Shown here: piece after piece, positions 3,070 to 26,800 of the stretch | Numbering within the stretch: the stretch's first letter is position 1 | How the letters are laid out: every line of letters begins with the position of its first letter | Source of the DNA: a virus | Lineage: Duplodnaviria > Caudoviricetes | Length of the DNA stretch: 30,849 bases | Reading direction: 5' to 3' (one strand) | IMG/VR virus record: IMGVR_UViG_3300037479_000046 | Coordinates: 1-30,849 of that record | Program-made: the position numbers and the translations under genes | The notes under the pieces: generated by a model | Told to the model about the DNA's origin: nothing | Seen by the model: only the letters and a program-made list of their open reading frames with translations | Database searches by the model: none

Positions 3070-4362
3070 ATGTCCGCGCCGATCAAATGTCAGACGCTCC
3101 ACGCCGCCGCCGAACTCGGCGAGCCGGTGATCGCATACAGCGGGCTCGCCGCGCGCGCGCTCGGCGACGACCCAATCGCGTCCATCATCCTCTGCCAGAT
3201 GTGGTTCTGGACGCGCGGTGGGACGCGACGATCATCAGTCGACGCCGGCTCGATCTATGGCGTCACTGGAGTGAATCCGGCGCGCCAACGACGCGCACGC
3301 CGCGCACTCAAAGGCCGCGGTTGGCTGCGCGAGAAGACCAGACGCGGCGAGGACGGCCGGCTGCACGTCACATATGCCGTCGATCGCGATCGGGCGCTGC
3401 TGGACCTGCGGGCGTTCGCGGGTGCGGAGCGCGACCGCCGCGCCGCCGCGATGGAGCTCTCCTTGTTGGCGTCGGTCGGCAACGAGCCAGGAGAGAAATC
3501 GATCATGGACTCGGCGCCATGCGAAGAAATCGATCATGGCCATATGCAGAAATCGATCATGGAACCGGTTCCGCCATGTGCAGAAATCGATCATTCTGGA
3601 GATCCGGATCCGGAAGAGATCCGGAAAGAGGAAATACAGGAGCACGGCGCTACGCGCCCGCTCTCGCTCGAGCAGCCGGAGCCGGACGCGACCCGGGTGA
3701 ACGCGCCCCCCGAGGGCAATCGATCCGACAGGGCCGGTCCCCGATCAGCGGAGTCGGAGCTCAAGCCGATCGTCGCGGCCGAGGACGTCCTCAATGGACT
3801 ATGGGACGATGATGTTCCGGGCGCGCGCGGCGTCGCTGTCCTCGCCGTCGTGCTGCGTGTCCTGTCGGAGACGTGGCACGGCCAGCCGCGCGCCGTCGTC
3901 CCGTCCAAGCAGCGGCGCAACCTCTGGTCGGATTGGGTCGATGCCGGCGGGCGCCCCAGCGACGCCATGCGCGCCATCCACGGGATGCGGCATGATGATT
4001 GGGATCGGCGCGGCGACCACGCTGACCTACGCCACCTCCTCGGGAGCGTCGATCGCTGGGTCGGACTCTACCATTCTCACCACGTCCGCGGCGTAGAGCC
4101 GCGCTGGCCGCGACGTCGCGCCGACGCGACACCCGCCGGGCTCCGACCATGGCGCGGCGTGTATCTGCCGGCGGAGCGCACCCCCACGGAGGGCGATCGC
4201 TTCGCGCTCGACGCTGGCTATGTGTTCGTGTTCGACGAGCGCGAGTGGGTCGATCCACGCGACGATCCCCGCGGCCTCGTCGCGAAGCACCGCGCCCGAT
4301 ACGGCGATGCAAACGTGAGCGAGGTCGCGCGCGCACGCATCGGAGCGGATCGTGTCGCGTGA
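3070..4362 (+). CDS. Phage replication initiator (lambda O / P22 gp18-like, N-terminal winged HTH)
   Basis: ASIILCQMWFW...TGVNPARQRRARRALKGRGWLREK HTH pattern; internal iterons; immediately upstream of and overlapping dnaB. Confidence 0.85.
   Translation: MSAPIKCQTLHAAAELGEPVIAYSGLAARALGDDPIASIILCQMWFWTRGGTRRSSVDAGSIYGVTGVNPARQRRARRALKGRGWLREKTRRGEDGRLHVTYAVDRDRALLDLRAFAGAERDRRAAAMELSLLASVGNEPGEKSIMDSAPCEEIDHGHMQKSIMEPVPPCAEIDHSGDPDPEEIRKEEIQEHGATRPLSLEQPEPDATRVNAPPEGNRSDRAGPRSAESELKPIVAAEDVLNGLWDDDVPGARGVAVLAVVLRVLSETWHGQPRAVVPSKQRRNLWSDWVDAGGRPSDAMRAIHGMRHDDWDRRGDHADLRHLLGSVDRWVGLYHSHHVRGVEPRWPRRRADATPAGLRPWRGVYLPAERTPTEGDRFALDAGYVFVFDEREWVDPRDDPRGLVAKHRARYGDANVSEVARARIGADRVA
3494..3640 (+). 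promoter_or_regulatory. Probable phage origin of replication: four iterons plus purine-rich tract
   Basis: AGAAATCGATCAT at 3494, 3525, 3548 and 3582 (copies 2-4 extend to GCCATRYGMAGAAATCGATCAT), then GATCCGGA repeats and A/G-rich GGAAAGAGGAAATACAGG; the repeats occur in different reading frames, so they are DNA-level. Confidence 0.85.
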
Positions 4363-5833: not shown

Positions 5834-6495
5834 TCAGTCACACCATCGCGGCGCTCTACGTCGAGCGCGACGGCGCCTACTACGGGCTCGACGACGTCGA
5901 CCCGTGGGACCGAGAGCGCGACGCGCGTCTCTACGACGGGCCGCACCCCGTCGTCGCGCATCCGCCGTGTGAGCGCTGGGGCCGCTACTGGTACGGCGGC
6001 CCGATGCTGCACGCACTCGGTCGGCGCAAGACGAAGGGCGACGACGGCGGGTGCTTTGCGATGGCCCTGCGTGCCGTCCAGCGCTTCGGCGGCGTGCTCG
6101 AGCACCCGGCCGCTTCGCACGCATGGCGCGCGTTCGACATCGTCGCGCCGCCGCACGAGGGTGGCTGGGTCCCGGCCGGCATCTTCCATCCCGGCGCCTT
6201 CACTTGCCACGTCGAGCAGGGGCACTACGGGCACCGCGCGCCGCCGGGCTTGCCGCAAGAGCAGCACGACGCTCGCAAGCGCGTGCTTGCCGATATCGGC
6301 TGGTTCACGCCCGAGCTGATGTCGAAGCGCGAGCGCTCCGCCACCCCCATCCCGTTCCGCGATGTGCTGCTCACCATCGCCCGAACCGCTTGCGCTGACG
6401 ATCCCGCCGAAGGCGCCGCGATGATCGAGATATCCCGCGACGACGAGAACGGCCTGAACGGCGCGACCGTCGCGGAGAAGGTCGACGACGAATGA
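5830..6495 (+). CDS. Phage protein resembling a degenerate C5-cytosine methyltransferase
   Basis: IAALYV..DG.Y, DPWD..RDAR.Y.GPHPVVAHPPC (PC dipeptide), VLEHP (ENV-like), VEQGHYGH (motif VIII-like) in MTase order. Confidence 0.6.
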   Translation: MISHTIAALYVERDGAYYGLDDVDPWDRERDARLYDGPHPVVAHPPCERWGRYWYGGPMLHALGRRKTKGDDGGCFAMALRAVQRFGGVLEHPAASHAWRAFDIVAPPHEGGWVPAGIFHPGAFTCHVEQGHYGHRAPPGLPQEQHDARKRVLADIGWFTPELMSKRERSATPIPFRDVLLTIARTACADDPAEGAAMIEISRDDENGLNGATVAEKVDDE

Positions 6496-7451
6496 ACGCG
6501 CCAACCCCGTTCGACGTCGTCCAGCGCTGGCGCGCGCGCCGCGACCTCTACCGCCCCGCCGGTGAGCCGATCGACGCGCATGCGTACGGCGTCGACGTTA
6601 TCGAAGAGCGCGCCGCTCGCGCCTTCGTCGTCGGGCACCACTACTCGGCGAGCTACCCCGCCGCCGTCTGCCGCGTCGGTCTCTTTCGCGCCGACGCCGG
6701 GCTCGTCGGCGTCGCCGTGTTCTCGGTGCCGTGCAACCCGGCGACGGTGCCCGCGCGCCTCGGCGTCGGCGCCGAGGCCGGCGTCGAGCTCGGCCGCTTC
6801 GTGTTGCTCGACGATGTGCCCGCCAACGGCGAAACGTGGTTCCTGCGCCGCGCGTTCGCCGTGCTGCGCGCCGAGAAGCCCGCCGTGCGCGCGGTGCTCG
6901 CGTACTCCGATCCCGAGCCGCGCACGACGCTCGACGGCGACGTCGTTATGCCCGGGCACGTCGGCACTATTTATCAGGCGCACAACGCGCGCTACCTCGG
7001 CCGCGCGCGGCGCGAACGCGTGTGGCTGACGGGCGATGGGCGCACGCTGAACCGCCGCACGCTGTCGAAGCTCCGACGCGACGAGGGCGGCGCCGCCGGC
7101 GCGTACGCGCAGATGCTCGCCGCTGGCGCGCCGCCGCGGCGTCCGCTCGAGAGCGGGCCAGCGTACGTCGAGCGAGCGCTGCGCGAGGGGCCATTCCGGA
7201 CATACATGCACCCGGGGGTTCACGCGTACGCGTGGGGGCTCGATCGGCGCGCTGAGCGTGCGCTGCCCACGGCCGTCGCGCCGACGCCGAAGCGGGGGGC
7301 AGCATCTCCGCCTGCGCGCGTACTGAACGACGGCTTAGTACCGCCGAGCAACATCGGCGACCCCGATGAGCAGCAGCATGGGCGCGAGTTATGGAGGCGC
7401 AACTCCGTTCTCGCCGCGCTGCGCGCGTGCGGGGAAGAGTGGCCGCCGTGA
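6492..7451 (+). CDS. mom: Mom-family (GNAT-fold) adenine-modification enzyme
   Basis: HHYS, LVGVAVF, VELGRFVL, ANGETWFL, AYSDP and GHVGTIYQAHNARYLG match phage Mu Mom-like motifs. Confidence 0.85.
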   Translation: MNAPTPFDVVQRWRARRDLYRPAGEPIDAHAYGVDVIEERAARAFVVGHHYSASYPAAVCRVGLFRADAGLVGVAVFSVPCNPATVPARLGVGAEAGVELGRFVLLDDVPANGETWFLRRAFAVLRAEKPAVRAVLAYSDPEPRTTLDGDVVMPGHVGTIYQAHNARYLGRARRERVWLTGDGRTLNRRTLSKLRRDEGGAAGAYAQMLAAGAPPRRPLESGPAYVERALREGPFRTYMHPGVHAYAWGLDRRAERALPTAVAPTPKRGAASPPARVLNDGLVPPSNIGDPDEQQHGRELWRRNSVLAALRACGEEWPP

Positions 7452-8128
7452 CTCGCGCAATGCTGCACCTCGGCGACTATCGCGACACGCTGGCCGACGT
7501 CTCTGCGCAAGCGGTCATCGTCGACCCGCCCTACGGGGAGCGCACGTACGTCGGCAACGCCGGGCGCGCAATCGTCGACACGGGACGGCGCCAGATCTCG
7601 TATACGTTCTGGACTCCGCTGGCCGTGCACGGGTTCGTGCAGTTCTGGTCGCCGCGGTGCTCGGGCTGGATCGCTGCGATGACGTCGGACGACCTCATAC
7701 CGGTGTGGCGCGCGGCCTATGCGGCCGTCGGGCGCCTCGACTTTGCCCCGGTGCCGATCGTCGCGCCTCGCGTGCGTCTTAGTGGCGACGGGCCGGCGAG
7801 TTCGGCGGTGTATCTGATGGTCGCGCGGCCAAGAGAAAAACGCTTCACGTCGTGGGGCGCGCTGCCCGGCTGGTACGAGGCGCCGGTCGAGCGCGACGGG
7901 CACATCGGCGGCAAGCCGATCGGGCTCATGCGCGCCATCGTGCGCGACTATTCCAGGGCCGGCGACCTCGTGTGCGATCCGTGCGCCGGCTTCGGCACGA
8001 CGCTGCTTGCCGCGCGGATCGAGGGGCGATCCTCCGTCGGCGCTGAGATCGATGCGAGCGCGCACGCCGAGGCCGTGAGGCGACTAGATGGGGCGTATGC
8101 ACCTGACCTATTCGCGGGGGTCACATGA
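7448..8128 (+). CDS. DNA amino-methyltransferase (N6-A/N4-C, beta class)
   Basis: DPPY near N-terminus; KPIGLMRAIV, GDLVCDPCAGFGTT, GAEID near C-terminus; GTG 7448 overlaps mom stop. Confidence 0.92.
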   Translation: MTRAMLHLGDYRDTLADVSAQAVIVDPPYGERTYVGNAGRAIVDTGRRQISYTFWTPLAVHGFVQFWSPRCSGWIAAMTSDDLIPVWRAAYAAVGRLDFAPVPIVAPRVRLSGDGPASSAVYLMVARPREKRFTSWGALPGWYEAPVERDGHIGGKPIGLMRAIVRDYSRAGDLVCDPCAGFGTTLLAARIEGRSSVGAEIDASAHAEAVRRLDGAYAPDLFAGVT

Positions 8129-8331: not shown

Positions 8332-8645
8332 TCTCCCTGAGGCAACGAGCGAACGACGTCCGCGCGATGCTCGACTTTATGTTGAGCGAACACGACGCCG
8401 AGACGCGCGACCTCGTCACGCAGATCGATCGGCTCAAGGCCGCGCTGGCGGCGATGCGCGACGAGCGCGACGCCGCGCGCGATGCGGTTGACCTCCTGCT
8501 GCCCGTCGCGCGCGCCGGCGTGCGGCACACGCCGGAGTGCCTCGCCGCGATGGATCTCACGCAGCAATGCGCGTGCGGATACGACGCGCGCGAGGCGCCG
8601 ATTCTGCGCGCGATCGATCGAATGAAGGGAACGACCAATGGGTAG
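8328..8645 (+). CDS. Hypothetical coiled-coil protein with H...C...CxC motif
   Basis: ATG 8328 overlaps upstream stop; heptad-like segment then HTPEC...CACG. Confidence 0.65.
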   Translation: MISLRQRANDVRAMLDFMLSEHDAETRDLVTQIDRLKAALAAMRDERDAARDAVDLLLPVARAGVRHTPECLAAMDLTQQCACGYDAREAPILRAIDRMKGTTNG

Positions 8646-8961
8646 AGAGACGGCGATCGAATGGACGCATCACACATTCAACCCGTGGCATGGGTGCGAC
8701 GCTGCGCCGCGGCGGTTCTTCGGCGACAACCACTGGCGCGAGCCTTTGCGCTGGGATGTCGAGGCGCGCGCGGCCGGCGTTGCATGGGCGCGCGACATCA
8801 TGGCGCAATGCGCGTTCGCGTGCGTGCCCGTGTTCGTCAAGCAGATGGGCGCTCGTCCAGTAGGCGCCGTGCTCGATGTCGTGCGGCTCGATCGCAAGGG
8901 CGGCGACCCGTCGGAATGGCCGCCTGACCTGCGTGTGCGGCAGTTACCGGGTACGGCATGA
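8638..8961 (+). pseudogene. Internally deleted Gp37Gp68/DUF5131-family gene (frame still open, 107 aa)
   Basis: Family N-terminus (TAIEWTHHTFNPWHGC) and C-terminus (WARDIMAQC..ACVPVFVKQMG...KGGDPSEWPPDLRVRQLP) are present; the Cys cluster and central core are missing. Confidence 0.75.
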
Positions 8962-9644
8962 AGCGCAAGCGCATGGCGCCAGACATCGAGCGCGCGTTTG
9001 CGCTCGCCAGCGGTTTCGCGCGGCACGGGGCTGCGTTCGTCGCGATCGACCCGGGCGCCAGCACCGGCTGGGCGATGACCTGTGCGTACGACTTGATCGA
9101 GAGCGGCCAGGACGCGCCGGCAGACGCGGCGCGGGCCGTTCTCGATACGCTCGGGGACCGCCCGATCGCGCTGCTCGCCGTCGAGGAGCCGTTCCTTGTC
9201 GGCCGCGGGGCCCAGTGGCGCCTGCCGTGGGCGGCCGGCGAGGTGCGCGGGCGACTGGCCGCACACCAAGTCGACGAGTCGTGTCTTTGGACGCCTAAGC
9301 CGGTCGTCTGGCGCGCCGTGCTCGGGTTCGCGCGCGGGAGGCGCGACGACGTCAACGCGGCGATCCATGCCTGGGCCGAGGACCGCGTCCGGGCGCCTCT
9401 GCGCCGTTCCGGCGGGGCGCCCGAGGCGGATCGAGCGAACGCGATCGCTTTGTTGTGCGCCTCGCTGGCCGTTTGCGCTACGGTTGTTGCTGGGCGGCAA
9501 CACGGAGGAAGCAATGGCGATCGGGAACACGTTCCAGGTAGTGAAGGCCCCTTGTCGGATCGAAAGCGTCACGTTCGCAAAGGCGAAGCCGAAGAGTGCG
9601 AACGACAACGGGGCGGGGGTCAAGAAACTCAAACTGTGGATTGA
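8958..9644 (+). CDS. RuvC-like Holliday junction resolvase
   Basis: VAIDPGASTGWA, LAVEEPF, P..WRAVLG and DRANAIAL in RuvC order; last 131 nt overlap the next gene. Confidence 0.8.
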   Translation: MKRKRMAPDIERAFALASGFARHGAAFVAIDPGASTGWAMTCAYDLIESGQDAPADAARAVLDTLGDRPIALLAVEEPFLVGRGAQWRLPWAAGEVRGRLAAHQVDESCLWTPKPVVWRAVLGFARGRRDDVNAAIHAWAEDRVRAPLRRSGGAPEADRANAIALLCASLAVCATVVAGRQHGGSNGDREHVPGSEGPLSDRKRHVRKGEAEECERQRGGGQETQTVD

Positions 9645-10062
9645 CGCGAGCGGTGACGACCTCGTGCGCAGCGTCGTCCCGCTGTTCGCGGGCGTGATCG
9701 ACGAGCACACGGCACACCGCGTGGCGAGCGAGGACGGACCCGGATTCGAGGTGCGCAGCAAGCGCAAGATGGGCTTGTCGAACGTGAAGGTCCACGACAC
9801 GCAGGGGGCGGTCCTATTCGAGTCCCCGATTGCGCGCGTCGAGCGGCCGAAGTTTATCATCGGCAAGAGCGCAAAGACGGCGTGGCTCGTGCTCGACGTA
9901 GAAATGGCGATCCCCAAGAGGGCGTTGTCGATCGTCGACGACTATTTCCGCGCCGACGTCCTCGCATCCATCGCAAACGCGCAGATGGATCTCGAGGACG
10001 AAGCGAAGGCGAAGGTCGACGCCGCGAAGGCAAAGAACGGCAAGCGGCGCGGGGCGAAATGA
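9514..10062 (+). CDS. Hypothetical protein, Lys-rich, basic C-terminal tail
   Basis: GGAGG at 9504-9508 then ATG 9514; protein-like composition; ATGA coupling to next gene. Confidence 0.8.
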   Translation: MAIGNTFQVVKAPCRIESVTFAKAKPKSANDNGAGVKKLKLWIDASGDDLVRSVVPLFAGVIDEHTAHRVASEDGPGFEVRSKRKMGLSNVKVHDTQGAVLFESPIARVERPKFIIGKSAKTAWLVLDVEMAIPKRALSIVDDYFRADVLASIANAQMDLEDEAKAKVDAAKAKNGKRRGAK

Positions 10063-10361
10063 TGCTGCGCCTCGGTCCTTGGATCCGCGCGCGCCGCGTC
10101 GAGCGGGGCGTTGACGTCGCCGACGCGGCGACGCGGCTGGGGCTCACGGTCGAGGCGATGACTGACGTCGAGGCCGGCGCTCGGCTCATGCCGCATCCGG
10201 CGCTCGTCGACTACGCGGCGCTCGCGCAGCTGCTCCTCGACGAGCCGACGCTTGATGCCGTCGTCGTGCTCCGCGCAGAAATGTACGCTCTCTATGACGA
10301 GGATAGGCGCCGATGGGACAAGCGAGACGCGAGCCGCCCGCGGCCGACGGACGACCGCTGA
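10059..10361 (+). CDS. XRE/Cro-family HTH protein
   Basis: LGPWIRARRVERGVDVADAATRLGLTVEAMTDVEAG is a typical XRE HTH. Confidence 0.85.
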   Translation: MMLRLGPWIRARRVERGVDVADAATRLGLTVEAMTDVEAGARLMPHPALVDYAALAQLLLDEPTLDAVVVLRAEMYALYDEDRRRWDKRDASRPRPTDDR

Positions 10362-10510
10362 CGCATCAGCAGCGACGGTGCCTCGGGCTCCTGCGAGCGG
10401 GGCGACGCGATCTGATCCGCGAGATCGTCGGATGGCAAAAGACGATTCGCAGCCTCGCCGCTCGTGGGCTCGTTTCCCACGACACCATCGACCGGATCAA
10501 CGCTCACTGA
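10313..10510 (+). CDS. Small putative winged-helix protein
   Basis: LTHQQRRCLGLL...KTIRSLAARGLV pattern; GAGG upstream. Confidence 0.5.
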   Translation: MGQARREPPAADGRPLTHQQRRCLGLLRAGRRDLIREIVGWQKTIRSLAARGLVSHDTIDRINAH

Positions 10511-10808
10511 GCCGTCGCATGCGCGTCAGTAGCGCCGCGCGGGACCTGTCGACCAGCTCCTCGGCGGCTCGCACGTTGCCTGCGTGCGCTCGCAGGCGTG
10601 TCTGGAGCGCAAGGATCTCGTCGAGTTGTTCTCGTGTGATCGCGCCTATGAATACGAGCGCATCGCCGATACGTCGCCCCTCCCTCGCGGCGACGTCGGA
10701 TGCCATCGCGAGGACGTCGTCGTCGACGAGGCAGAGTCGTTGCGCGAGCGCTCCGACGTCGACCATTGCGCGCATCGCCGCGTCTGCTTTGCGTCGCTCG
10801 TCGTTCAC
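10497..10808 (-). CDS. Stand-alone MshEN-motif protein (candidate c-di-GMP binder)
   Basis: Residues 46-69 RIGDALVFIGAITREQLDEILALQ fit the 24-aa MshEN consensus; preceded by a 5-aa linker and a degenerate 24-aa copy; AGAGGTG RBS. Confidence 0.78.
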   Translation of the reverse strand: MNDERRKADAAMRAMVDVGALAQRLCLVDDDVLAMASDVAAREGRRIGDALVFIGAITREQLDEILALQTRLRAHAGNVRAAEELVDRSRAALLTRMRRLSER

Positions 10809-10811
10809 GGC

Positions 10812-11144
10812 TCACCTCTTGAGCACGACGACGTCCAGAACTCGTTCGATCATTTCCTCGTTGCGCTTGAGCGTGCGCGTCATTTCGACGAACACCTCGG
10901 TCTGCTTGACCGCCATGTCGAGGAACTTCGTGCCGGCCATCTGGACCTGTCGGTACAGGTACCAGATGACGACCCCCTCCAATACGACGAGCGCGCCCAG
11001 GATCCCCTGTTTCAGCAGCTCCGCGGCGGCGGACGTCGCGACTTGCTCCGGGCCGGCGACGGGCTGAGCCCACGCGGGGCTGGCCGCGATGGCGGCGATG
11101 CACACGTTGATGATCGCGAGTGCGATCACGGGCCAGCGCTTCAC
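10812..11144 (-). CDS. Membrane protein, putative holin (BhlA-like) with N-terminal signal-peptide-like segment
   Basis: MKRW+hydrophobic run+AWA, second TM LLKQGILGALVVLEGVVIWYLYR, charged helical tail; lies at distal end of tail module; GGAGG RBS. Confidence 0.6.
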   Translation of the reverse strand: MKRWPVIALAIINVCIAAIAASPAWAQPVAGPEQVATSAAAELLKQGILGALVVLEGVVIWYLYRQVQMAGTKFLDMAVKQTEVFVEMTRTLKRNEEMIERVLDVVVLKR

Positions 11145-11152
11145 CGGTTACA

Positions 11153-11207
11153 CCCTCCGCTCCAACGTCGATCGTGATAGACGCGCGACGCAGACGCAAG
11201 CGGAGGG
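11153..11207. promoter_or_regulatory. 9-bp inverted repeat formed by the two divergent ribosome-binding sites
   Basis: CCCTCCGCT (11153-11161) and AGCGGAGGG (11199-11207), 37 nt apart. Confidence 0.5.
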
Positions 11208-11211
11208 ACGC

Positions 11212-12072
11212 ATGGGGACCGGATACTGGTACGCGCTTCCGGGGGCTGGGACTGCCCTCGGCGTCGTCGCGGGAGCTCTCGAGCGCCTCTTGCCCGTCGC
11301 CCCTGGTCTCGGGTTCGGCGGTACGAGCGGCGGCGGCCTCGTTGCCTTGGCGCTCGCCAGCGGCATGTCAGCGACCGAGATCGGCGACGTGCTGGACACG
11401 CTTCTGCGCCGAAAGGACCTGCTGGACAAGGGCTGGCCGTTCGACCAGTCGCCCGGGCTTTATCGTGGTGCGCGTATCGAGGGTTTTGCGCGCGATGTGT
11501 TCGGCGCCGAGACGCGGCTAGGCGACCTCAAGCATCCGGCGCGCGTATGCGCGTGGGATGCCTGGACATGCGAGCCGTGCGTCTTCGATAGCGTCGCACA
11601 CCGCGACGTTCTCGTGTGGCGCGCCGCGCGCGCGACGATGGCGATCGAGTTTTTCTTTGACCTCGTCCGCGCGCGCGCCGACAACGCAAGGCTCTACGGC
11701 GACGGCGGCCTCGTCGTAAACGTCCCGCACGGGCTCTGGGACGACAAGCCGGAACCGACGATCGGCGTGCGGTTCTCCGGGCAACACGCTGCGTTCGAGG
11801 TCGCAGCGCTGATCGAGAGTGCGTCGGGCAAGGCGCACCCGGCCCGCGTCTGCCCGGTGCGGACGTGGGCCGACCTCGTTCCAGCGGTCGCGCGCACGGC
11901 GCTGCGCACCGCGTCCGCGTCGTGGCCGTCTAAGAAAGCGGCGTTCCAGGAGGTCGTGCTGGAGAGCGCGGCCGACGGCATGGCGTTTGGGCTCGCCGCG
12001 CCAGAGGTCGAGCGCAGGCGCGACAGCGGACGTCGCTCCGGCGAGCGCGCGGCCGAACGATTCAAGTCGTGA
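11212..12072 (+). CDS. Patatin-like phospholipase
   Basis: Nucleophile elbow GTSGG, catalytic DGG (YGDGGLVVNVP), Gly-rich N-terminal loop; GGAGG at 11202-11206. Confidence 0.9.
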   Translation: MGTGYWYALPGAGTALGVVAGALERLLPVAPGLGFGGTSGGGLVALALASGMSATEIGDVLDTLLRRKDLLDKGWPFDQSPGLYRGARIEGFARDVFGAETRLGDLKHPARVCAWDAWTCEPCVFDSVAHRDVLVWRAARATMAIEFFFDLVRARADNARLYGDGGLVVNVPHGLWDDKPEPTIGVRFSGQHAAFEVAALIESASGKAHPARVCPVRTWADLVPAVARTALRTASASWPSKKAAFQEVVLESAADGMAFGLAAPEVERRRDSGRRSGERAAERFKS

Positions 12073-12622
12073 TTGCCCGCGCGCTGGCGATCGTCACGCC
12101 GGGGTCTGCGGCGATCAGAGTCTCGCGCTGCACAGTCACGGCGAGCGCGGCCTCCGCCGTCTGCGCCGATAGGATCTGCGCGATCCCCTCGTAGTATCCA
12201 TCGATCGCGAGGTTGATCCACGACCAACACGTTTCGATGTGCGCGGCGCGATCGACGAGCGGCGGGACGAGAGACGTCGCCTCCGCGAACATAAAAGTTA
12301 ACGTGCGTTGTGTCGTGTCGAGATAGCGCTCTTCAACGAGCGCGCGCGTCGTCCAATACAGTCGCTCTGCGGCGATCCATTGCGCAGTCTGGAGGTCTGG
12401 CTCACCCAGCGCGGCGCCATCGTCGCTTCGTATGTCGTCATTCGACGGCGGCCCATCGAGAAGCTCCCACGGTGGCGCAATGTCGTCGGACCATGATCCG
12501 CCGGTTGTGTCTGCATCGAGTCCGAGGTCAGGCGCAGGCAAAGAGCGCGGGTGATCCTCGGCCGGGGCGCCACGCTCCGCAAGCATGGCATTGATCACCT
12601 CGTGCGGGTTTCCTCGGTCCAT
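12062..12622 (-). CDS. Putative tail-fibre assembly/chaperone-like protein
   Basis: Position after tail-tip gene; helical C-terminus ending ...QILSAQTAEAALAV as in tail assembly proteins. Confidence 0.5.
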   Translation of the reverse strand: MDRGNPHEVINAMLAERGAPAEDHPRSLPAPDLGLDADTTGGSWSDDIAPPWELLDGPPSNDDIRSDDGAALGEPDLQTAQWIAAERLYWTTRALVEERYLDTTQRTLTFMFAEATSLVPPLVDRAAHIETCWSWINLAIDGYYEGIAQILSAQTAEAALAVTVQRETLIAADPGVTIASARAITT

Positions 12623-12625
12623 TTA

Positions 12626-15600
12626 TCACTCCGCAAGGCCAAGACGAACATTCCACCATGTCCGCGCCTCGCCGCCTGTCGTATCGCCGAGGTGGAAGAT
12701 CGTCGCAGGCCCGAGGTTCGCGCGGAACCATTCGAGCGTCAGCCGATCACCGCGCTGGAGCTCCGCGCGCGTCGAGAGCAAAACAGGGCTGACGCTGTGA
12801 TTGGCGAACGTCGGGAGCAACAACGGGTCATAAGTGCCGGCAGGGACCCACACGCCTCCGTTTGCCTGCGCAATGACCGAGCCGCCCGTGTTGTTCGGTG
12901 ACGCGAGCGACGTGTACGTCGCGTTTCTGACAATGCGCGCCATCGGCGCGAGCGCGGCGCCTGGCGCTGTGCTGTTCACGATCAGCGCGACCGCCGCTGT
13001 GATCAGATACGTACCCGGCTCCTTCGCGTAGAAGCCGTTACCAAGGAACGTCCCTGGACCGAACAGCACCTCGACCGTCCCGTCCTCGCGCGGGATGGTC
13101 ACGCCACCCCCTCCGGAGACGAAGTGGTTGTGCCCCCAATCGTGCGTGCGAAATACGACGGTAGACCCGGGCGCACGGAGTGCGACGTTGTACCAAGCGT
13201 TTAACGGCGCCGCCGGGAGCACCCACGGATTCAGGCAGAACGTCCGGTCTTCGCGCGCGGTGCGGTAGATCGCGACGGTGTCGACGACGATAGCGGTCGG
13301 GAATGCGTGCGTGCCGTCCGTGTCGGCGCGGATGCCGATGCGCACGAAGCGCGCCGTGGACACCAGCCCAGTCGCATCGTCGATCGGACAAATGCCGTCG
13401 ACGCGCGACGTGAACCACGTCCCGTTGGCGATGACCGGCGCATCAGGGAACTGATACGGCGGCGTCGTCGCCGTGCGCGGCCGGCGCACGCATGTCGCGA
13501 CTACGGTTGTCCCGTCGGCCGCGAGCCATTCGATCAACAACTCAACACGCTTCGGCGCAGGCGGGAGCGCAAACGGGGCCGGCCACTGCCAATGCACCTC
13601 AAAGCTGTATGGCGTGTCGATCGACCCAAGGATCGGGATGTTCTGACAGCGCAGCGTCGCCGTCGCGGTGTTCAGCGACACAGCGCGGCCGCCCGACAGT
13701 GTCACGCCCTCGACGGCGCTAGCGTCCGTGCCCCACGTACCGATCGCCATCGTCCACGAGTCGGGCGGGTAGGCGTTGCCTCGAGAGAAGCGCGCGAAAT
13801 CACCGTTCTTCACCTCGACGAACTTTGTCCCGCCGAGGTAAATGCTTCGATCGACCATGTCCAGCAGACCCGGCAGCAGCGAACCGATGCCGCGTCCTGT
13901 CAGCGCCTCACCGGGGTTTCGGATCGGTGGACGCCCGTTGCGCCCTGCCTCGATTGAAAGCCACCTGTTGAACCCGGCCGCCGGCTTTCCCTGCGCGTCG
14001 AGCGACGTGCGGCACCCGTCGGCAGTGAACGTGTGGCGCACCGAACGAACGGCGCCCTCCTGATTCACCGTCGTGCGGATGCCGTCCGGTTGCATCAGCA
14101 ACACGTCGTGCGCCTCGATCTCTGGGACCCCGGCAAGGTCGTGCGTTGTCCGCCGCAGCGGGAATGCGAGGTCGTCCACGATCGCCGTCGCCATGCGCGA
14201 CGCCTCAACGGTCGTGTCGATCTGTGAAGACTGGTCCTCGATGACTTCCATTTCGCGTAGGTCGAACTGCGCGACGCTTGTCGCGTTCTGGACAAAGACG
14301 CTGTTTGGGCTGGCGAGGCCCTGGTCTGTCGGCAGGCCGACGGAAAAGCGATCGGGGAACGTCACGGTCACTTGATTGCGCACGCCGCTGGCGTCCTGCG
14401 CGCCGCGTGTCGTTCGCATGACGTCGCGTTCAGCGATGACTGCGTCACAGTCGACGCGCCCGCGTCCCGGGTCAAACATCGTCAGGCGGTGGAGCGACGT
14501 AGACGGGTCCCAGCGCGCACGGCAATCCCATCCGATCTGGCCGGCGAGCGTGCGCAGCGTCGGGAGAAGATGCCCGCGGGGCACGTTCCGCGCGTCTGGC
14601 GTAGGCGGGACCATGCAACTCTGCGTGGGGATCGGCGTGTAGAGCGTCGCGAACGCTCCGAACGCTCCTGCGCCGCCGTTGTCGTCGATCACGCGCTGCA
14701 TGACGGTCTCGCGTCCGCCGGCCGTCGGCCCGCACCCGTTCGAGCCGAGGTCGCCCGTGGCCGGGTACGAGCGCTCCGCGTTGATGTACCGCTCTGCCAT
14801 GCGCGCGCCCTCGTCGCGGCACGAGATCGTAACGCGCTCGCCGCCGTCGTCGATCTCGTCGATGCGGCCTTCAAACCGCGTCTCCCAATCCGTCGCGGTC
14901 GGCGTGATCCATGTTGGCACGCGCGCCGCGTCCAACCGCGCCGGTCTCCACACACCGAGAAACGGTGTGAAGCTGGGTGAGAGTGACGGGTTGTTGAGCA
15001 CCGAGTCACCGCGCAGCGGAGCAAGCGAAATGTCTCCGCTCTCACGGAACATGGTTGCGACGATTTGATCGGTCTGGTCGTCGATTGAAGTCGTGTACTC
15101 GACGGATTCAACGAAGTCGTCGCCGACAACGGTTGGGTCGGTGAGGTCTCGGTAAACGGCGCTCTGATCCTGAACGAATAGCCGAGCGTATTGAGCCGTC
15201 GGGAGCGCGAGCCCGGCTCCACGACGCCAGATTTCTTCAACCTCCGGGTTCGACATGACGCCGGACTGCGCGTGCCACGAGCACACATGCCCCGTGATAC
15301 CCCTGGCTATGAGGATGCCGGTGGCATTGACGACACCGCCGACGGTCCAGCGCTGCGTCGCGAGCGCTGCGGAGCTGCTATTTGCCTGTGCCGTGAACGT
15401 CTGGACCACGCGGCCATTCACGAGACACTCGTAAGTGAACGGAGCCCCGACGCTCTTTCGCCATGTCAGCAGAATCCAGCGCCCAAGAAAGCGGCGGAAG
15501 TCGACCGTGGTCACGAGCGCGCTGTGATCGACCCCGGCACCATCTTCCCAAAAGAGACGAGCACGCACCTCGCCGTTCGCGCCGGGATACGGAACAACGC

Positions 15601-26290: not shown

Positions 26291-26800
26291 TCACGTCGGA
26301 GAGACCAGCGGCCAGCGGGCGAGCCCCCACAACTCGGGCGCGGACAGCGGGCGCTTCACGCGGGTGACGGCATCGGACCAGTTCCCGTCGATGGAACAGA
26401 TCACGCCATCCTCGAACCGCTCGACGACACCGACGTGGTGACCGCGCCGGCCGATGTCCGATAGCCCGTCTGGGCCGAGAAACACGAGGTCCCCGGGGCG
26501 CGGGCGGGCGGCTGGCGCCCCGACGCCGTCGGCGATGAAGGCGCGCGCGGCCTCGATCGGGATGAAGGCACCCAAGTCGCCCAGAGCACGCTGGAGCTCG
26601 ACGACCGAGGGGATCAACCACTGGTTGCCCGGAAGCGGATGACCGATCGCGGAAAAGCCGGCGCGGACGAACCTGGCGCACCACGCTGCGGGGCGCTCGC
26701 CAGGCAGGGCGTATCGCCTCATGGGCTCGCCGTCGTTGCTGCGCGGCGGGTCCTCGCGCACGCCGACCTGTGAGGCGGCCCACTCGACGATCGTCGTCAC
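26291..26800 (-). CDS. CHAP-domain peptidoglycan hydrolase (probable endolysin)
   Basis: AASQVGVRE..SN.G, WCARFV (Cys), PRPGDLVF, HVGVVE (His), IDGN. Confidence 0.9.
   Translation of the reverse strand: MTTIVEWAASQVGVREDPPRSNDGEPMRRYALPGERPAAWCARFVRAGFSAIGHPLPGNQWLIPSVVELQRALGDLGAFIPIEAARAFIADGVGAPAARPRPGDLVFLGPDGLSDIGRRGHHVGVVERFEDGVICSIDGNWSDAVTRVKRPLSAPELWGLARWPLVSPT

Follow-up and report, generated by a model that had tools for sequence, protein, structure and literature searches.

A phage MshEN-fold protein coupled to a holin-like membrane gene: a proposed lysis accessory pair

What does a phage do with a small protein that has the predicted fold of a bacterial c-di-GMP receptor and is encoded directly behind a holin-like gene? 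The question is raised by one ORF in a linear virus record of 30,849 nt (completeness 66%), the whole of which was analysed and is called the window here. The sequence-only reading saw in this ORF a stand-alone MshEN protein that might sense c-di-GMP, sequester cyclic dinucleotides or jam pilus assembly. The ORF belongs to a real phage module built from a known domain and apparently undescribed. The reading preferred here, which we hold about as readily as we doubt it, is a late, membrane-anchored lysis accessory pair, in which the MshEN-fold protein docks on or regulates its partner and binds c-di-GMP weakly or not at all.

Table 1 Features of the window around the gene pair, and the candidate endolysin
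Feature	Positions	Strand	Remarks
103-aa MshEN_N-fold protein	10497..10808	-	Helix 2-16, four-helix core 17-74, C-terminal helix 79-102
Motif 1, residues 17-40	10689..10760	-	Altered: R9>D17, L29>S37, Q32>A40; also L10>V18, with G11 and L25 kept
Motif 2, residues 46-69	10602..10673	-	Intact: R46, I47, G48, L62, L66, Q69
110-aa membrane partner	10812..11144	-	One transmembrane stretch (47-63), long C-terminal helix; holin-like anatomy
Gap between the divergent partner and patatin genes	11145..11211	.	67 bp; GGAGG ribosome site on each strand
Patatin-like phospholipase	11212..12072	+	Pfam PF01734, E 2.1e-14; intact GTSGG and DGG motifs
CHAP-type candidate endolysin	26291..26800	-	15 kb away from the pair, flanked by capsid and head-tail adaptor genes

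Gene, fold and ancestry of the MshEN protein

At the pair formed by the MshEN gene and its membrane partner, two blocks of the window converge: one for replication, running rightward (RecE-like, Erf, DnaB, Mom, methylase), and one for head and tail, running leftward (capsid, connectors, tail tube, tape measure). Among the matches listed, cultured phage records reach no more than about 44% identity to the capsid protein. The region was found in two freshwater DNA runs, and no RNA run contains it among the matches listed. One of the DNA runs, possibly the source of the record, covers the region in a single contig with zero differences; thus, an assembly error in this one record does not account for the gene order. 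In the second run, 9505-10496 contains 14 differences, whereas 10497-10749 is free of them (chance probability about 0.03), which is a weak hint of constraint on the MshEN ORF; a single change, N2T, appears in the protein at a depth of 3. No sigma-70 promoter or terminator matches were obtained in 9800-12800. On the plus strand, a Mom-family DNA modification gene (6492-7451) overlaps an N6/N4 methylase gene (7391-8128), and a short DUF5131 gene (8638-8961), which matched no more than parts of the 243-position model, seems to have an internal deletion.

The MshEN ORF begins with GTG, 3 nt past the stop of the upstream gene, exactly where it had been placed relative to a holin-like gene, and its GAGGTG ribosome site overlaps that stop. 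By codon score it ranks first of the six frames, if weakly (0.094 bits/codon vs 0.018 for the antisense frame), and a second collection also contains a 103-aa gene call (P0116). Its description as the last late gene is right for strand and position, but between the pair and the tail genes lies the plus-strand patatin gene. The protein may be called stand-alone; its gene may not, being one half of a pair that travels together.

The proposed MshEN ancestry and fold were supported. The best PDB sequence match is MshE (5HTL, E 0.017). A single-sequence AlphaFold2 model (pLDDT 92.4) has core helices at residues 18-24, 30-43, 47-53 and 59-74 and flanking helices at 2-16 and 79-102. The layout had been said to be followed only by a helical tail; the C-terminal helix is there in the model, and the N-terminal helix 2-16 comes in addition. 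With Foldseek, which had been suggested as a check against MshEN, the top structure is 5HTL (rmsd 0.8 A over 54 columns, prob 0.99, E 1.2), followed by PilF GSPII-B. VIA-align over 48,161 chains places MshE/PilF at ranks 1-3, with 5HTL at Z 8.2 (rmsd 2.0, 59 aligned); this Z is middling for a helical model, and the support for the fold comes from its agreement with the sequence. The family profile (A2) returned 14 PDB rows, all of them pilus ATPase N-domains (5HTL at E 1e-11). A search of 1.84 billion representatives gave 80 matches including the protein itself; NF053729 or NfrB-type models were found in all of the other 79, among the matches listed. Eight are small proteins aligned over almost their full length, seven of which pass NF053729. 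The window protein itself matches this NCBIfam model at E 1.8e-5 and 24.4 bits, below the curated cut-off of 38.

Other collections returned little. PF05157 did not match the protein, Pfam and PHROGs searches of the record gave no MshEN match, an Atlas search with the protein gave no match, and a word-index protein search recovered only the query. Three MshEN-family queries had no convincing match in cultured phage records, and in BFVD the single possible match was A0A516LYM6 (rmsd 7.1, prob 0.94, E 0.28). A FumaraseC_C match (E 0.03) was rejected as a look-alike helical motif. A rapid tree built from 22 family cores plus 60 other domains (59 columns) had one starred branch, with 10 changes counted vs 19.5 after shuffling; the family may or may not go back to a single origin. 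The alpha/beta MshEN_C subdomain is absent from the model, which has no strands and forms one helix at residues 79-102; in MshE, this subdomain is described as not needed to bind c-di-GMP (PMC5013675). The protein descends from MshEN_N and folds like it, yet it departs from a c-di-GMP receptor on two counts, namely its first guanine site and its score below the curated cut-off.

The predicted c-di-GMP site

The translation bears out the 24+5+24 layout at residues 17-69 (nt 10760-10602), with two 24-residue motifs (17-40 and 46-69) and a 5-residue spacer (41-45). None of 100 shuffles matched the two-motif pattern, which was itself derived from this protein family. Binding-site residues are numbered here after V. 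cholerae MshE, in which residues from both motifs jointly hold each guanine (PMC5013675). The first guanine site, R9 (or K/L), G11, L25, L29, L39 and Q32, corresponds to D17, G19, L33, S37, I47 and A40, so that three of its six residues are lost. The second, R38, G40, L10, L54, L58 and Q61, corresponds to R46, G48, V18, L62, L66 and Q69 and is complete. The lack of Arg and Gln in the first repeat, which had been pointed out before, is confirmed (D17, A40); two further losses in motif 1 had gone unmentioned, namely that of the turn Gly (replaced by C26) and that of the second of the stacking Leu residues (replaced by S37). Residues 17-45 contain six acidic vs three basic residues, and the window copy is among the most altered of the family.

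The changes follow a pattern. Of 22 family members, 18 have D, N, S or T at the R9 position, and none has one of these at the corresponding place of motif 2. The same residues occur at the R9 position in 13/16 loci found with patterns that leave this position free and in 7/226 other tandem MshEN domains (Fisher p 3.5e-14, a value inflated by kinship, and the 226 comparison domains may not all be cellular). The R9 change is systematic across the family, as judged from these sequences, and not random decay. Asp, Asn, Ser and Thr are helix-capping residues, and at the R9 position they could take up the backbone NH groups with which guanine is read. Helix capping by S, T and D is also discussed in work on PilF (PMC12002112). 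The residues G40, L58 and Q61 (G48, L66 and Q69 in the window) are invariant in 22/22 members, an invariance partly imposed by the search patterns. Elsewhere, Q32 is kept in 13/22, the L29 position is L, I or V in 16/22 and position 38 is R, K or L in 17/22.

Canonical c-di-GMP sensing is unlikely for the window copy because R9, L29 and Q32 are changed, each of them costly to MshE. L29A weakens binding 28-fold and Q32A 9-fold (PMC5013675), and R9A costs 83% of binding (PMC4624772). If these costs multiply, the KD would lie above 100 uM, beyond the cited cellular range of 0.05-10 uM. The earlier suggestion that the protein senses c-di-GMP is therefore doubtful for this copy, with three of six residues of the first half-site gone.

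The leading alternative, which we regard as possible but on the unlikely side, is a nucleotide-gated lysis switch, in which the intact second half-site still binds a host dinucleotide and signals to the membrane partner. The ligand could be c-di-GMP at micromolar affinity or, via the changed first site, asymmetric 3',3'-cGAMP or pGpG. The invariant second half-site and the retention of Q32 in 13/22 are what would be expected if the family still binds a nucleotide, and the residues kept at position 38 and the systematic R9 change on one motif only speak for it as well. MshEN binds cGAMP, albeit weakly (KD 330 uM), and c-di-GMP is bound by the N-subdomain on its own (PMC5013675). In PilF GSPII-B, R can be exchanged for K or L, and binding at 0.5-1 uM persists after single Q>E changes (PMC11731258). 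Against such a switch stand the three lost residues and the acidic surplus of the window copy, and a Ser at the motif start abolished binding in an already weakened PilF construct (PMC12002112). Moreover, no GGDEF was found in the window record or in 12 records with the pair or the L012 fusion, most of which are incomplete. The widest form of the idea is unlikely: a widespread clade of uncultured phages would have taken an MshEN receptor and rewired one guanine site, so that a host dinucleotide, cyclic or linear and possibly asymmetric such as 3',3'-cGAMP, gates lysis via the holin-like protein. If true, a viral second-messenger receptor would set when the infected cell bursts. One small MshEN-like gene of 68 aa (L007 in G016, match 4001-4069, -) has K at position 1 and no membrane neighbour; its viral record of 388 kb is the only one of 15 with a GGDEF gene (above the Pfam cut-off).

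The gene pair and its neighbourhood

A survey of phages for MshEN-only genes beside holins had been suggested, and it revealed a small MshEN gene behind a one-pass membrane gene at at least 16 other distinct loci. Degenerate patterns for motif 2 alone were used as queries over viral, metagenome and genome collections; the strict two-motif pattern found no loci in the metagenome and genome collections. In 12 of 24 viral loci, a one-pass membrane gene is followed immediately by a small gene for a tandem MshEN protein. The others are three long ORFs starting with the motif (PilB-like by inspection), two fusions of a membrane protein with a single motif, two small genes without a membrane neighbour and five chance matches. 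Pairs were also present in 5/119 metagenome loci and in at least one of the 120 genome-collection loci listed, with short flanks only at 79 of these 239. Duplicates were merged before counting (L002/L010, L005/L014, L039/L063). In the window and all other pair loci, the MshEN gene starts at -20 to +14 nt from the stop of the partner gene.

The loci do not all represent independent events, as several are related phages. The window has its 1126-aa tail protein in common with L002 and L013, its CHAP protein with L016, and the gene at 9517-10062 with L184. At L123, a MshEN protein 38% identical to that of the window is preceded by a partner gene whose product is 71% identical over 56 aa. The closest partner relative is P0123 (65% identical) and the closest MshEN relative P0004; both occur on two contigs, the longest of 10,848 nt, and they probably share one contig. 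L184 is a phage-like contig of 17.5 kb with 64% GC within a MAG, which is no proof of a host. The 181-aa product of the window gene shared with L184 (9517-10062, +) has no Pfam or NCBIfam match and is 56% identical to the L184 protein; each of the two genes precedes an HTH gene converging on the pair.

Two viral proteins, at L012 (3983-4450, -) and L015 (about 624-1301, +), combine one membrane stretch with a single C-terminal MshEN motif and could form a site by dimerising. L012 was considered as a fused form of the pair and rejected: it has no BLAST similarity to the window partner, and the architecture is only analogous.

The partner has holin-like anatomy, i.e., it is small, has a membrane stretch and lies in a lysis-gene context among homologues and analogues; in the window itself, only the patatin gene adjoins it. 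Its N-terminus appears signal-peptide-like. K and R are more frequent after than before the membrane stretch in 15/19 partner rows, and the reverse applies to none. By this charge rule, an N-out/C-in topology is predicted, which would place the long helix in the cytoplasm. An inner-membrane spanin (N-in/C-out with a periplasmic coiled coil) is disfavoured by the same charges, which follow the stretch in 15 rows and precede it in none. Holin models in Pfam, PHROGs and NCBIfam did not match the partner, whose relatives gave weak Rz-like and bacteriocin-associated PHROG rows (E 0.004-0.1). Scans of viral contigs by single protein found one relative for the partner and none for either the MshEN protein or the patatin. 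The partner can occur alone, as its homologue at L001 lies near a GH108 lysin with no MshEN gene behind it. A complex prediction for the MshEN protein with partner residues 40-110 scored 0.00 with controls that did not fold, and this score speaks neither for nor against contact.

A cell-wall hydrolase lies within 1.1 kb of the pair in 7/14 loci with enough flank, a raw proximity count. The families are M15_3 (L002, L009, L013, L045), CHAP (L016), VanY (L025) and M15_4 (L184). Patatin adjoins the pair in two of the 14 (L004, L045). Among the ORFs scanned at the remaining six (L014, L021, L022, L024, L026, L039), neither was found; three of these loci end less than 1 kb away, and the crude ORF picking missed at least one real gene. 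At L016, the homologue of the CHAP protein of the window sits 0.9 kb behind the pair. Four loci have an additional gene of 86-88 aa between the MshEN gene and the hydrolase (L002 4443-4703, L013 4173-4433, L016 about 1054-1263, L184 4185-4451). It is homologous among the first three and a different membrane protein at L184, and it could be the actual holin.

In the window, the patatin gene lies on the opposite strand within the late block and overlaps the end of the 12062-12622 gene by 11 nt. No match to it was found in cultured phage records, and its presence beside the pair varies. A signalling unit of patatin and MshEN, comparable to CapV of CBASS, was rejected as the general case, with patatin in 1/17 viral records and an NF041079 score of 44.9 bits vs 200. 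The proposed link to a holin-like neighbour and lysis genes is borne out at the level of conserved gene context rather than of function.

Proposed role and related systems

The accessory-pair reading is preferred because of the fold match, the gene coupling, the conserved gene order, the frequent hydrolase neighbours and the R9 change. The two genes would be co-translated late, and the partner would sit in the inner membrane with its C-terminal helix in the cytoplasm. The MshEN-fold protein may then dock on this helix and regulate the partner or link it to a lytic enzyme, for which high-affinity c-di-GMP would not be needed, and the pair may contribute to lysis timing or envelope breakdown. 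Physical contact, co-translation, the lysis role and the loss of high-affinity binding are all inferred. Several findings count against the proposal: six of the 14 loci have neither hydrolase nor patatin among the ORFs scanned, the endolysin candidate of the window is 15 kb distant, the partner matches no holin family and the L001 partner does without a MshEN gene.

A decidedly improbable alternative is that the protein is a decoy of the N-domain of PilB, MshE or GspE, tethered to the membrane through its partner, and prevents superinfection by jamming the assembly of pili or of the type II secretion system. The fold is common to the ATPase N-domain and a membrane anchor would bring it near the platform, and phage inhibitors of PilB exist, i.e., Tip, Aqs1 and Zip (PMC11656802). 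These are described there as PilB-binding peptides and not as MshEN mimics; furthermore, the MshEN_C subdomain is absent, and the pair is found among tail and lysis genes rather than early or immunity genes. Hardly probable, too, is a late accessory with no part in lysis or signalling (morphogenesis, membrane tether), near hydrolases since late genes cluster. The six loci whose neighbours are unannotated or tail-like instead of hydrolase or patatin, and the variable position in the window, would agree with it. Nevertheless, four hydrolase families fill the neighbouring slot in different phages, which suggests a functional rather than a positional tie. The weakest candidate, a very remote one, is a sponge that would soak up cyclic dinucleotides and so dampen CBASS or the signalling of the host: a small phage protein with a nucleotide-binding fold recalls the sponges, a class well known from phages, yet high affinity would be needed where the window copy carries binding-weakening changes, a coupled membrane gene would be superfluous and is present in 12/12 pair-type viral loci, and the family profile matches only pilus ATPase domains in the PDB. 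For the sponge and pilus-jamming roles proposed at the outset, and equally for the unrelated late accessory, no positive evidence emerged, and the two roles proposed at the outset fit poorly with the membrane-gene coupling and the late, lysis-associated position.

Among known systems, the N-subdomain of V. cholerae MshE (5HTL; PMC5013675; NF053729; PF05157) is closest, with the same four-helix bundle, the 24+5+24 layout and an intact motif 2. In contrast to MshE, the window protein is phage-encoded from a gene coupled to a membrane gene, lacks MshEN_C and the ATPase, has extra N- and C-terminal helices, carries R9>D, L29>S, Q32>A and G18>C and shows no basic patch before motif 1. Non-binding domains of the same fold with degenerate motifs are T. 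thermophilus PilF GSPII-A (PMC12002112) and the N-domain of Xanthomonas XpsE (2D28), and the structural matches of the window model include 9G1W and 2D28. GSPII-A has been proposed to be a protein landing pad (PMC12002112). Both are ATPase domains, whereas the window protein is a separate small protein; in GSPII-A, as described there, mainly motif 2 is degenerate, with the C-subdomain and a capped helix extension blocking the domain; in the window, by contrast, motif 1 is altered and motif 2 intact.

For the partner, the one-pass N-out/C-in layout of mycobacteriophage LysF1b (PMC13056207) resembles the predicted one, and in phage WO a patatin beside a holin-like gene was proposed to be a lytic cassette (PMC9203015). 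LysF1b and the phage WO protein share with the partner one membrane stretch, a charged C-terminal helix and an adjacent endolysin or patatin, a likeness of anatomy and position. The consulted parts of these two papers describe no MshEN-fold partner, and the window differs in the additional signal-peptide-like N-terminus of its partner and in its patatin on the opposite strand. The sponges Acb2, Acb4, Tad1 and Tad2 and the PilB inhibitors Tip, Aqs1 and Zip are likewise small proteins by which phages interfere with the signalling or pili of the host, with no coupled membrane gene described in the portions of the sources consulted. None of them is among the listed PDB sequence, Foldseek, VIA-align or profile matches, an absence which excludes nothing.

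No phage-encoded MshEN was found in the literature at the level of titles and abstract openings, a scope that leaves aside most subscription papers. In the supplements of PMC5013675, the word phage occurs in five places, and the two seen both concern host NfrB; supplements of other MshEN papers could list phage-encoded MshEN. Neither Pfam nor PHROGs picks up the family.

In the known cases, the timing of lysis is controlled through holin-antiholin pairs. If the accessory-pair reading is true, a holin-like protein joined to a domain derived from a host receptor would be a different kind of lysis control. Should the half-site still bind a nucleotide, the phage could read the biofilm or defence state of its host before bursting the cell; if none is bound, the pair would clearly exemplify how a receptor fold is put to new use as a protein dock. 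Family members form a natural series, with P0004, L123 and L002 at the near-intact end and the window copy at the strongly altered one.

A last observation concerns the cytoplasmic helix of the partner, in which residues 71-79 (alignment A3) follow the pattern hydrophobic-x3-hydrophobic-x2-Q in many partners. It recalls the LxxxLxxQ end of the MshEN motif and may be a mere coiled-coil repeat.
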